This document shows, one piece after another, positions 5,383 through 9,029 of a stretch of 11,319 nt of DNA. How positions within the stretch are numbered: the stretch's first letter is position 1; every line of letters begins with the position of its first letter. This DNA is from an uncultured Polyangiaceae bacterium (GTDB lineage Bacteria > Myxococcota_A > Polyangia > Polyangiales > Polyangiaceae), in assembly GCA_964605685.1 (NCBI GenBank), contig CAZSDX010000010.1, positions 20,103-31,421 of the forward strand, read 5' to 3'. The notes below the pieces were generated by a model. The model ran no database searches. It was not told the origin of the DNA and was given only the letters and a program-made list of their open reading frames with translations. The translations under genes were made by a program, and so were the position numbers.

Positions 5383-8103
5383 ATGGAAAACCGACCGCAG
5401 AAGATCCCCGTCCCGCGCCGCTCGTTCCTCTGGTCGATCAACGAATCCAGCGGAGAAGTGATCACCCACGTGGGGCCCACCGAGTTCACCCCGAGCGCCA
5501 ACGACCGGATCGTCCGGGCGAACGAGCGCGGGGGGCTGGAGCATGCTCCACAGCTCGAGGCCCGTCCCTTCGTCGTGGTGAAGGACGGGGAGTACGTGGT
5601 GCTGTCCAACCCGCCCCGGGGGGAGTGCACGGACGAGATGCCCAACGGAGCCTTCGTCCCGGGGGCCAACAAGGAGAAGGAGCTGCTGCTCGGGGGGACG
5701 AAGATCATCCCGGGGCCCTGCGGCTTCCCGCTGTGGCCCGGGCAGACCGCGGAGGTGCGGCAGGCGCACAAGCTGGGGGGCAACCACTACCTGCTGGTGG
5801 AGGTGGTGGGCGCGGTGGACGAGCGGAGCCGCTACACCCGGCTGGTGACCGAGGCGGCGGGGCTGTCGAGCGCCGTCATCGACGCCGGGGAGGGGGAGGC
5901 GCAGGCGAACGCGGAGGCGGCCCGGGCCGTCAGCTCGCCGAAGCAGCTCGTGCCGGGGCAGCGGATCGTGATCCAGGGGCGGCACACGCCGCTGTTCATC
6001 CCGCCGACCGGGATCGAGGTGGTGCCACCGCTGGAGGAGATGGAGTCCGGCGGCAAGGACCAGGAGGGCGCCGGGCTCGCGGCGCTCCCGCCGGCGGCCC
6101 AGCAGGAGTGCGCCCGGCTGGTCGCGCAGGTGCAGGCCGGGGTGAGCGCCAAGCAGTTCAGCGTGCTCAAGAACGAGCTGAGGCACCGTCCCGACCTGTC
6201 CTCGGGGGAGAAGGCCATCCTGTTGACGGCGCTGGACGCGGCCTTCGAGGAGCGAGGCGCCCGGCAGCAGCCCCGCGGCCGCGACCGGGGTGAGTCGAGG
6301 AACAAGCCCCCGGCGGACCCCTACGCGCGGCGCGCGGTGGTGCTCGGCCCCAAGGAGTTCTGCGTGCTCTTCGACGCGGACGGCAACGCGCGGATCGTGC
6401 GGGGCCCGGCCCGGGTCTTCCCGGGGCCCTACGACACCTTCCTCCAGCGGGGGTCGAGGCGGCGCATCTACGACGCCTACGAGCTGGCGGAGCACCAGGC
6501 GGTATGGATCCGCCTGATCAGCCCCATCCGGCGGGAGAAGCTGGCGCAGCACCTGCCGCCGGACTTCCCGCTGGACCGGGAGCACTACCCGCCGGGCCAC
6601 GAGTTCATCGTGCGGGGGAAGCCGACGGTGTTCTTCCCCTTCAACGAGGCGGAGGTCATCAGCCCCACGACCGGGGAACCCCACGTGGGCAACGATCATG
6701 AGAACGTGATCCTCAACGCCATCGGCATCGACCAGAAGAGCGGCATCTACGTGCGCGACCTGCGCACCGGCATCGTCAAGCTCATCCGGGGCGAGGTCTC
6801 TTACCTGGTCGACCCCCGCTTCGAGGAGCACGTCCACCGCCGCATCCCCCGCGACCACTGGAACCTCATGATCGCCCACGCCGAACCTCACAAGGCGGCG
6901 CCGCAGGGCGATGCGTTCGTCACCACGCCCTGGGCGCTCTCCGTGTCCATTCCCAACAACGAGGCGGTGATGGTGACCTCCCACCACCAGCGCCGTGTCG
7001 AAGTTGGCCCCAAGGTGATCCTCCTCGACTACGACGAGCAGCTCGTCCCCTTGCGGCTCTCCAAGGGGCTATCCAAGGATGGAAGCTCCACCGTGTCCAC
7101 CTGCTTCCTCCGTCACCAAGGTACACGTACCAGCGACACCTTCGACGTCGAGTCGAGCGACCTGGTGCGCTTCCGGCTGCGGGTGGGCTTCAAGGGCCAT
7201 TTCGAGGGCGAGCCGCTCACCTGGTTCCAGGCGGAGGATCCGGTGAAGCTCCTGGCGGACACCGCCCGCGCCAAGGTCCGCGAGGCGGCCCGCGCCGAGA
7301 CCGCCAACCGGCTCCTCAAGGATTTCCCCCAGGTGGTCCGGGGCGCCCTGCTGAACAACGGCAACGGCCTGCGCTTCCCCGAGAACGGCATGGTCATCGA
7401 CGCCGTGGACGTACTCTCCGTGCAGGTCCTCGACACGGAGCTGGCCCAGCTCTTCGCCGCCGCGCAGCAGGACGTGGTCAAGCTCCAGATCAGCGAGGAG
7501 ATGGCCGTGCGCCGCCTGACGGCCAAGCGCCACATCGAGGACATCAGCTCCCAGGAGGCCGCCCTCAAAGCCGAGGAGATCAAGCGCCGCACCCAGCTCG
7601 GCGTCCTGGAGGCCGAGGGCACCCACGCGGTGGAGATCCGCTCCGCCCAGCTCGACGCCGAGCGCGCCGCCGCGGCCCAGGAGCGCGGCCAGGCCCAGGA
7701 GCGCAAGGCGCTGGACTTCCGGCTGGCCACGGCGCGCGCTGCCGCGGAGGCGGAGGTGCTCCGGAAGATCCAGGCGGCGGAGGCGGACGCCAAGGCGAAG
7801 GATCTGCTACACCAGTCCGAGGAGCGGCACCGGGCGCAGCTCACGCGGATCGAGGCGGAGCTGAGCAGGGCGCTGGCGGAGGCGGACGCGGTGAAGCTCC
7901 AGGCGATCCAGCGGGAGCTGGTGGGGGCGCTCCACGCCGCCGCCGACAGCGAGGTGATGAAGACCGCCGCGGCCAACATGAACCTGGTGGCGCTCCTGGG
8001 GGGCAAGAGCCCTGCGGAGATCCTGGGCCAGATCCTCCGCGGCACGCCCCTGTCCCGGACCGTCGAGGAGATGCGTGAACGCGCCCGCGGCGACGAGGAG
8101 TGA
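5383..8103 (+). CDS. Major vault protein (MVP) homologue, 906 aa: N-terminal vault repeats, SPFH-like shoulder domain, C-terminal Ala/Glu-rich cap-helix coiled coil
   Basis: Listed ORF 5215..8103; the true start is the ATG at 5383, preceded by a strong SD. Several segments match rat MVP as I remember it. [28 protein letters not shown] matches [58 protein letters not shown] matches [60 protein letters not shown] matches [48 protein letters not shown] matches NGLVVSSVDVQSVEPVD. These are followed by a 250-aa coiled coil. Confidence 0.85.
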   Translation: [906 protein letters not shown]

Positions 8104-9029
8104 GGTAAGAGGAACGTGTAGACGAGGGAGACCGAGGAGACGGTGTCCAGCTTCTCCTTGCCGGGGACGGGCTTGCTCTCGTAGCGCTCGGAGAAGGAGA
8201 AGGAGATGGCCAGGGCGTCGAAGATCTTGGTGGTGAGGGCCACGTCGCCGTTGATCCGGTAGAGCCCCGTGTCGCTCAGCCCCTGGAGGAACTCGACGCC
8301 GGCGGTGAGCTTGCTGGTGTCGGAGAGCGCATGCTCGTAGCCGAGGGCGATACGGCCCGAGTGGACGGTGCGGGTCTTGGGGGTGACGAACTGGCGGGAG
8401 CCGTCCGGGTTGCGGATCTCGTTCTTGGCGTCGTCGCGGGCGACGCGGGCCTCGTCGAGGCGGATGTCGTGGAGCAGGTCGTAGCCGAGCTCGAGGGTGA
8501 GGAGCTGGGTCTTCTTGTTGATGAGGGTGTAGCCGACACCCGGGTCGACCTGGAGGCGGAAGGCGAGGCCCTGGAACTTGTCGTGGCGCCCCTGGACCAC
8601 GGTGAACAGGGTGACGTCGCCGAGGAAGTAGTCGTAGCGGGTCAGTCCCTGGATGTTGCGCACGGTCTCCTCGGAGACCTCGCTGTTCTGGGGGGTCGTC
8701 TGGGCGTAGTTCCCGGCGAGCGCCGCCCGGAACTGCTGGTCGTCGCGGCGGAGGCGGAACTTGGTCGCGGTGGTGAGGGCCAGCAGCCGGGCGTTTCCGG
8801 TGGACTGGAGGCCGCCCGCTGACAGGGACAGCTCGGTGGCATCCTTGCTTTCGGCGACCTTCTCCGAGGTCTGGAACTTGTCCGTCGTCACGTCGGTGGC
8901 GCCGGTGGTCGCCTTGCTCTGGGCCTGGGCACCCTGGGGGATCTCCTGCTGGGCGGACGCGGACGAGGCGACCAGGAGCGAGGCGAAGGCGAGCAGCGAT
9001 GGGAAGGGACGGCGGAACGAGAGGGGCAT
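7113..9029 (-). CDS. DUF481/YdiY-like outer-membrane beta-barrel protein with signal peptide; homology-supported core 8112..9029 (306 aa, ending ...VSLVYTF); no stop codon follows, so the ORF continues 333 codons antisense into the MVP gene
   Basis: Listed ORF 7113..9197. The start ATG is the complement of 9027-9029 (MPLSFRRPFPSLLAFASLLVASSASA|QQ), with GGAG 9 nt upstream. The segment LSAGGLQSTGNARLLALTTATKF...ALAGNYAQTT resembles the LNAGYLAQSGNTKSSS...WGNASNTS region of E. coli YdiY (DUF481). The C-terminal VYTF is a typical beta-barrel aromatic terminus. No stop occurs in any frame within 60 nt after F (8112-8114); the in-frame stop is at 7113. Confidence 0.6.
   Translation of the reverse strand: MPLSFRRPFPSLLAFASLLVASSASAQQEIPQGAQAQSKATTGATDVTTDKFQTSEKVAESKDATELSLSAGGLQSTGNARLLALTTATKFRLRRDDQQFRAALAGNYAQTTPQNSEVSEETVRNIQGLTRYDYFLGDVTLFTVVQGRHDKFQGLAFRLQVDPGVGYTLINKKTQLLTLELGYDLLHDIRLDEARVARDDAKNEIRNPDGSRQFVTPKTRTVHSGRIALGYEHALSDTSKLTAGVEFLQGLSDTGLYRINGDVALTTKIFDALAISFSFSERYESKPVPGKEKLDTVSSVSLVYTFLLPHSSSPRARSRISSTVRDRGVPRRIWPRISAGLLPPRSATRFMLAAAVFITSLSAAAWSAPTSSRWIAWSFTASASASALLSSASIRVSCARCRSSDWCSRSFALASASAAWIFRSTSASAAARAVASRKSSALRSWAWPRSWAAAARSASSWAERISTAWVPSASRTPSWVRRLISSALRAASWELMSSMWRLAVRRRTAISSLIWSLTTSCCAAAKSWASSVSRTCTESTSTASMTMPFSGKRRPLPLFSRAPRTTWGKSLRSRLAVSARAASRTLARAVSARSFTGSSAWNQVSGSPSKWPLKPTRSRKRTRSLDSTSKVSLVRVPW

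Follow-up and report, generated by a model that had tools for sequence, protein, structure and literature searches.

Introduction

TTA is a stop codon in the mitochondrial code of Thraustochytrium aureum (NCBI translation table 23). AGA and AGG occur at the ends of human mitochondrial genes, and AGA and AUA are unassigned in the high-G+C bacterium Micrococcus luteus; we know of no report of these unassigned codons as natural gene ends in M. luteus. In Streptomyces, UUA is extremely rare, slow to decode and read by the bldA tRNA, but it is a genuine leucine codon; in the open reading frame (ORF) upstream of adpA a conserved G follows the UUA, giving an overlapping UAG, and termination at this site has been speculated (PMC10732093). 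The present analysis concerns a stretch of 11,319 nucleotides from an uncultured Polyangiaceae bacterium (assembly GCA_964605685.1, contig CAZSDX010000010.1, positions 20,103 to 31,421; hereafter the window), in which a gene for a DUF481-family outer-membrane β-barrel protein carries TTA at the position of its orthologues' TGA stop codon.

We propose, with a probability of roughly 55%, that UUA ends translation in these uncultured, ~70% G+C, Polyangiaceae-like bacteria, and that the DUF481 gene would thus be an intact gene of 307 codons. As in Thraustochytrium, the same codon would have passed from leucine to stop, and TTA stands at the ends of genes that have standard stops in relatives; there, however, the genome is a small organellar one, whereas here it is that of a free-living, large-genome, high-G+C bacterium in which TGA, TAG and TAA are still used. 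The likeness to the disappearing codons of M. luteus and mitochondria is that a codon which base composition has driven close to extinction is no longer decoded and may come to end translation, UUA being the leucine codon most disfavoured at 70% G+C. The mitochondrial cases involve dedicated factors. With Streptomyces the window's lineage shares a high G+C content and rare UUA, and the UUA-G context recurs on one of the contigs compared below; in Streptomyces, however, UUA lies inside ORFs and acts as a developmental switch, whereas here TTA is never internal, and no G follows it in the clade of the window.

Results

The DUF481 gene has TTA in place of a stop codon

The gene lies in a minus-strand ORF (7113..9197), whose product would have 694 aa with a TTG start and 638 aa with the ATG at 9029 as start. 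Its barrel gives a full-length match to Pfam PF04338 (E=6.1e-37; profile positions 2-210 of 210 on residues 70-306). A homologue search with the whole 638-aa ORF returned only two matches and was dominated by low-complexity matches to the tail; redone with the barrel alone, it yielded 284 DUF481 homologues, all of ~290-320 aa, nearly all of which terminate in ...LVYT[LFVM][LMF] at the very C-terminus. The window barrel carries this motif as VSLVYTFL, and its length and end are typical of the family only if TTA terminates translation. A few family members have short tails past the last strand (P0040, +E; P0091, +R; P0083, P0118 and P0120).

An earlier interpretation made from the letters of the window (the sequence-only reading) had placed the end of the barrel at the Phe codon 8112-8114 of VSLVYTF. 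The Pfam match does stop at this codon, residue 306, but the orthologues end in YTFL, one residue later. Close orthologues on contigs L001, L003 and L009 read ...VSLVYTFL, encoded by TTC CTC TGA at the end, and the minus strand of the window reads TTC CTC TTA CCT CAC TCC from the same Phe codon. The difference at the stop is a single base, TGA to TTA, not the small deletion that had been offered as one cause. The ancestral stop position is 8106-8108, 2 nt from the stop codon of the convergent gene for a major vault protein (MVP) homologue, and apart from the codon there, none of the window's genes has an in-frame TTA. The other elements of the sequence-only reading hold at this site: DUF481 has no standard stop, its frame continues through the antisense strand of MVP, and no stop is near in any frame: past the Phe codon, the three frames on the minus strand stay open for 332, 89 and 100 codons. 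The distance from the Phe codon to the MVP stop (TGA at 8101-8103) is 8 nt, as had been noted.

The same TTA recurs in relatives

TTA occupies the same codon in the window, in L015, L002 and L005, and in the distant L016, and L004 has TTA TAG. Across the junction between MVP and DUF481, TTA included, the JGI contig L015 does not differ from the window. L002 and L005 come from other samples and are 95% identical to the window in protein; the DUF481 protein of L016 is only 59% identical. A comparison with orthologous loci had been suggested as a check on the missing stop. It recovered the TGA in L001, L003 and L009, but the TTA of L015, L002 and L005 means that the change is not confined to the window, and its presence in different samples argues against the sequencing error that had been considered. 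L002 and L005 share 98.9% identity as far as TTA, its last base included, and are unrelated beyond it (L002 4968-4970; L005 1265-1267). TTA is an inherited allele, with three kinds of sequence beyond it among its carriers.

Within DUF481 (8112-9029), informative sites in the 5′ half and signal peptide place the window with L009, which has TGA, and those in the 3′ half place it with L002 and L005, which have TTA; this suggests homologous recombination within the gene. The genome and metagenome locus scans returned a single locus each. An exact look-up of the window's MVP protein led to L015, the same look-up for its penicillin-binding protein (PBP) led to nothing, and the plasmid collection held no Myxococcota relative with isolate-quality sequence.

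The barrel is under purifying selection

In the mature region, dN/dS is 0.14 between the window and L002 and 0.13 between the window and L005. L002 and L005 differ by eight synonymous and no nonsynonymous changes, and parsimony assigns seven synonymous and two nonsynonymous changes to the window branch. Within the TTA clade as a whole, 37 synonymous stand against 15 nonsynonymous changes (binomial P=3e-12 against neutrality). The barrel of the TTA carriers is kept under purifying selection, and DUF481 is therefore not a decayed pseudogene, as the sequence-only reading had supposed it might be. The usual marks of one are absent: dN/dS is not near 1, and the DUF481 frame of the window has neither a frameshift nor an internal stop. 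TTA has remained unreverted across a dS of ~0.17.

TTA is found at the ends of other genes

We surveyed every in-frame TTA in frames with a coding signature, across all compared contigs. Each of them sits at a gene end, giving ten cases in which homology and coding signal stop at the TTA. Not one of 26,846 codons is an internal TTA, where the NNA/NNG ratios predict 5-10 (P(0) from 0.007 to 3e-5). The tally of gene ends is TGA 71, TAG 11, TTA 10 and TAA 5.

Six genes on the 21-kb contig L016 have their first in-frame TTA where the protein should end, DUF481 being one of them. A Cys-rich lipoprotein has a 90% identical relative, P0251, that ends exactly at the TTA (2279); downstream of it, near 2381, a further lipoprotein begins, with its own signal peptide and a PA14 domain. 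The 463-aa ORF called here (1715-3106) is two genes, one for the Cys-rich lipoprotein and one for a PA14 lipoprotein. NCBIfam profiles match an OmpA-like protein as far as their own ends, at residues 560-562, and its TTA comes next, as codon 563. The DUF4331 protein ends in ...GHGGAQ before its TTA, opposite the ...GHGATQ end of its 56% identical homologue P0253, and many further DUF4331 homologues end 0-4 residues from this point. Reading through the TTA of an SGL-like protein would overlap the next gene by 50 nt. MscL would have 151 aa if ended at TTA and 193 otherwise, and its PDB alignment reaches residue 114 only, short of the protein end. Third-position GC in L016 is 0.83-0.93 before the TTAs and 0.35-0.81 after them; the value of 0.81 belongs to the lipoprotein, where the next gene is in the same frame. 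Cluster look-ups of the L016 proteins gave singletons, the lipoprotein excepted.

On L001, the coding signature of an M16 peptidase is gone after an in-frame TTA. This case rests on a Pfam match and third-position GC only, and the length of the gene, at most ~429 codons after the first possible start, does not match a 467-aa orthologue call. Overall, TTA lies opposite orthologue stops in several genes: DUF481 in three lineages, and in L016 the lipoprotein, DUF4331 and, by its profile ends, the OmpA-like protein. Five of the six terminal TTAs in L016 (2279, 11364, 13223, 14949 and 16468) are followed by G, so that a TAG overlaps them in the +1 frame. In the window clade and L004, the base after TTA is instead C, C, A or T.

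We also considered a frameshift as the means by which DUF481 ends, and rejected it: the +1 and +2 frames are open for 89 and 100 codons, and an overlapping TAA is present in L002 only.

The extension follows from base composition

The window tail consists of 22.9% Ser, 17.2% Ala and 13.9% Arg, has a net charge of +48, and holds a predicted membrane-spanning segment, FMLAAAVFITSLSAAAWSA (Kyte-Doolittle 1.71). Under the standard code, the predicted read-through tryptic peptide across the TTA would be ...VSLVYTFLLPHSSSPR. The tails past TTA are unrelated among the carriers, with 7 aa in L002, 279 aa in L005 and 332 aa in the window; the L005 tail is an in-frame fusion into the downstream DUF218, a whole inner-membrane protein. 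The L016 tail is also unrelated to those of the window, L002 and L005.

The third codon position of the extension frame coincides with that of MVP. The stop-free antisense run of MVP is 329 codons in the window, 357 in L006, whose MVP has no DUF481 next to it, and 132 in L007. An open run of this length is thus unsurprising, since L006 has one in this frame too, and composition accounts for the long extension. The sequence-only reading had left room for a genuine antisense-encoded extension and had suggested synonymous rates in the MVP 3′ region as a check on dual coding. Between the window and L006, MVP dS is 0.105 in the overlapped part against 0.084 upstream, so that there is no reduction in the overlap. 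Both signs of dual coding that we sought, conservation of the tail in relatives and a lowered MVP dS, were absent.

A probable rearrangement joined MVP to DUF481

The window is composed of two blocks. Positions 726-8104 match the helicase-MVP block of L006 with 97.7% nucleotide identity, and the homology ends one base past the MVP stop; positions 8097/8102-11319 match the block of DUF481, PBP and family-2 glycosyltransferase (GT2) genes in L009, L002 and L005 with 91.6-93.5% identity. The blocks overlap by 8-12 nt of imperfect similarity, GGAGTGAGG at the MVP end against GGGGTGCGG in the L009-type flank. The 21-mer at the junction is also present in L015, and the junction is specific to these two contigs. 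In one ancestral order DUF481 is followed by DUF218 (L001, L005 and L009), and in the other MVP is convergent with RimK (L007 and L008); L006 retains 29 nt of the RimK end past its MVP stop. The L009-type intergenic region contains an in-frame TAA 12 codons past the stop position, and this was lost through the rearrangement.

An inversion between the MVP/RimK and DUF481/DUF218 intergenic regions probably brought the 3′ end of MVP, at a later time, to its place 2 nt away from TTA. If UUA is a terminator, the rearrangement would be harmless, because nothing past TTA would be translated.

In L011, from the same sample as L015, positions 1-626 contain the RimK 3′ end, ~135 nt without a match, and then DUF218. 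This RimK/DUF218 arrangement is a candidate for the reciprocal inversion junction. DUF218 sits behind a class A PBP instead in L012-L014, and the 45-nt DUF481-DUF218 spacer is a repeated rearrangement breakpoint. L015 itself is identical to the window up to ~9640; beyond this point its identity is only ~91% with the window and 99.9% with the L009 strain (window ~9640-11319, L015 8440-10121). This mosaic arose either by recombination within the gene for PBP or through an assembly that switched strains.

Gene content and public annotation

The features of the window are listed in Table 1. The predicted DUF481 export signal is assigned from its sequence pattern, and orthologues align with the window protein from AQQ onward. 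The order of PBP and DUF481 is common to L001, L002, L003, L009 and the GCA_041447055.1 contig carrying P0004. MVP has Pfam matches to MVP_shoulder and Vault_3 (PF11978, PF17795), and its 485 homologues, of ~900 aa, align with 99-100% coverage; nearly all of them are in genomes or metagenome-assembled genomes (MAGs) of Myxococcota, in varied genomic contexts. The MVP C-terminus, ...RGDEE, is identical in the window and L006.

MVP and DUF481 are convergent, with ends 2 nt apart (8101-8108). A search for an intrinsic terminator or terminator-like hairpin at their junction found none; transcripts of each gene should run antisense into the other. On the far side of MVP, in window positions 1-5247 and L006 3-4372, the 1,123-aa SNF2-family helicase adjoins a gene with a weak match to the MmeI N-terminal domain; the pair looks like a restriction- or defence-type module, which travels with MVP in L006 and L015.

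Table 1. Positions of genes and other features in the window.
Feature	Position	Strand	Remarks
DUF481/YdiY-family outer-membrane β-barrel gene	8109..9029	-	307 codons; end ...VSLVYTFL
Predicted signal peptide, MPLSFRRPFPSLLAFASLLVASSASA followed by QQ	8952..9029	-	by eye: basic n-region, hydrophobic core, ASA cleavage motif
TTA codon, proposed functional translation end	8106..8108	-	same position as TGA stop of orthologues
Spacer, 2 nt	8104..8105	.	between MVP stop and TTA codon
Open antisense ('shadow') frame of MVP 3′ third	7113..8105	-	330 codons plus TGA at 7113-7115; no conserved coding
MVP homologue gene	5383..8103	+	906 aa, full length; TGA stop 8101-8103
Rearrangement junction, imperfect microhomology	8097..8104	.	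homology limits to L006 versus L009/L002/L005
Spurious 163-aa ORF antisense to DUF481	8331..8822	+	in window ORF list; called on L015 in public annotation
PBP transpeptidase gene	9160..10275	-	Pfam PF00905; conserved upstream neighbour of DUF481
GT2 gene	10368..11081	+	Pfam PF00535
SNF2-family helicase gene	1876..5247	-	Pfam SNF2-rel_dom and Helicase_C; divergent from MVP; block common to L006 and L015

Gene callers had been expected to drop or mis-annotate DUF481, and they do: the JGI annotation of L015 omits it and calls the antisense ORF of Table 1 instead. A further miscall is found on L005, where a 585-aa DUF481-DUF218 fusion is annotated.

Discussion

The sequence-only reading did not consider that TTA itself might end translation, and the recurrence of TTA at gene ends points there. 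In the proposed reading, UUA would not be used as a leucine codon in this lineage and would mark the end of translation instead, so that ribosomes stop at it. The tRNA-Leu(UAA) may have been lost and the codon then recognised by a release factor, or release at an unassigned UUA may be independent of the codon. That UUA is an extra stop read by a release factor after loss of this tRNA, in a high-G+C Polyangiaceae-like clade of Myxococcota, is a tentative proposal to which we give slightly less than even odds. Termination at UUA would explain the constraint on the barrel, the failure of TTA to revert and the tolerance of arbitrary sequence downstream, be it an in-frame membrane protein or a tail in which a transmembrane segment is predicted, and the 332-codon extension would be the outcome of translating with the standard code. 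The frequency of TTA ends in the window lineage is like that of TAA, which fits a rarely used extra terminator at 70% G+C. For the organism of L016, the simplest reading of the gene ends is that TTA in DNA corresponds to the end of translation. Stalling at UUA followed by tmRNA tagging (PMC10732093) would destroy the product and is at odds with the constraint.

Several points weigh against termination at UUA. In the window's own lineage only DUF481 ends in TTA, with one further case in L001. For the evidence from several genes the source is L016, a contig picked for its DUF481 tail, and the DUF481 of L016 is only 59% identical. All compared sequences are short metagenome contigs, and a search for tRNA genes across all of them found none. 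The sample is small and TTA is rare in any 70% G+C genome, so that zero internal TTAs are moderate evidence. Over 3 kb, a quartet analysis with the window, L009 (TGA) and L002 (TTA) gave 43/34/18 informative sites and does not settle the closer partner of the window; only the 3′ half of DUF481 groups it with L002 (9:2:1), and a single origin of TTA in the window and L002/L005 rests mainly on this half. The prior is also low, because we know of no reported sense-to-stop reassignment in any free-living bacterium. Full-text literature searches found no report of a bacterial TTA or UUA stop. Myxococcus xanthus expresses Escherichia coli lacZ, a gene with TTA codons, and the trait can therefore not be general to Myxococcota.

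The main rival is an ordinary stop loss under the standard code, in which TGA became TTA, TTA is leucine, and the C-terminal tail is tolerated or trimmed. We regard it as unlikely, but it deserves a serious hearing. One base change suffices, as in any stop loss after which an ORF runs on until a stop occurs by chance. Even-stranded barrels have their C-terminus on the periplasmic side, where a tail might be tolerated or cut by periplasmic proteases, and the family has members with short natural tails (P0040, P0091, P0083, P0118, P0120). The in-frame TAA of the L009-type region, 12 codons downstream, would have capped the first tail, and the long tails of the window and L005 could be recent, mildly harmful variants; the window junction may indeed be young, its MVP block being 2.3% from L006. 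Against this, the window tail with its predicted transmembrane segment and charge of +48 and the DUF218 tail of L005 should each block outer-membrane assembly, yet the barrel has stayed under purifying selection and TTA has not reverted over the dS given above. Ordinary stop losses are rare, scattered over replacement codons and selected against, whereas here the codon is always TTA, the change recurs in genes and lineages, and the genes are constrained. The rival also leaves the six TTA-ended genes of L016 and the M16 peptidase of L001 unexplained. Under the standard code, L016 would have retained six stop losses in 21 kb, all of them TTA and with no other decay, which is not credible.

The remaining explanations are less probable still. 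DUF481 could be a pseudogene in the window lineage only, inactivated when the rearrangement removed the backup stop, with the conservation predating that event. The junction occurs in the window and L015 only, a product of read-through is probably non-functional, and public gene calls treat the locus as non-genic; but the ORF has neither a frameshift nor an internal stop, the window branch has seven synonymous against two nonsynonymous changes, and the TTA pattern elsewhere is left without an account. The window and L015 are identical here, so that decay after the junction cannot be judged, and on balance we think this rival improbable. An artefact, either a base-call error at the stop or a chimeric assembly of two genomes at 8097-8104, is very improbable. 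The mosaic structure of L015, window-identical on the left and close to the L009 strain on the right, demonstrates that strain mixing occurs in these assemblies, and the contig closest to one block of the window is not the one closest to the other. However, TTA is found in several samples and pipelines (window, L015, L002, L005, L004 and L016), an imperfect similarity of 8-12 nt at most is too little for a misjoin in a de Bruijn graph, the junction was recovered in a second contig, and the candidate reciprocal RimK/DUF218 junction of L011 is in the same sample. Least probable of all, to the point of being scarcely credible, is a real antisense-encoded domain in dual coding with MVP. A 332-codon open frame does exist, but the tail has no counterpart in any relative and a composition typical of antisense translation, the frame is open in L006 without DUF481, and MVP dS is no lower in the overlap than upstream.

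Even if the stop-loss rival were correct, a constrained gene without a standard stop codon is unusual. If UUA does end translation, this would be, to our knowledge, the first sense-to-stop reassignment in a free-living bacterium, and a natural 'codon capture' in a free-living organism, in which a codon lost under G+C pressure returns with a new meaning. The hypothesis is directly testable on existing MAGs and metaproteomes. It would imply a fourth stop codon that is missed by gene finders and by code-inference tools, which are built for sense-to-sense and stop-to-sense changes. Public annotations of these genomes would then systematically extend, fuse or drop genes, and such effects are visible in the contigs studied here: one gene missing from annotation, a false fusion of 585 aa, and two genes called as a single ORF of 463 aa.

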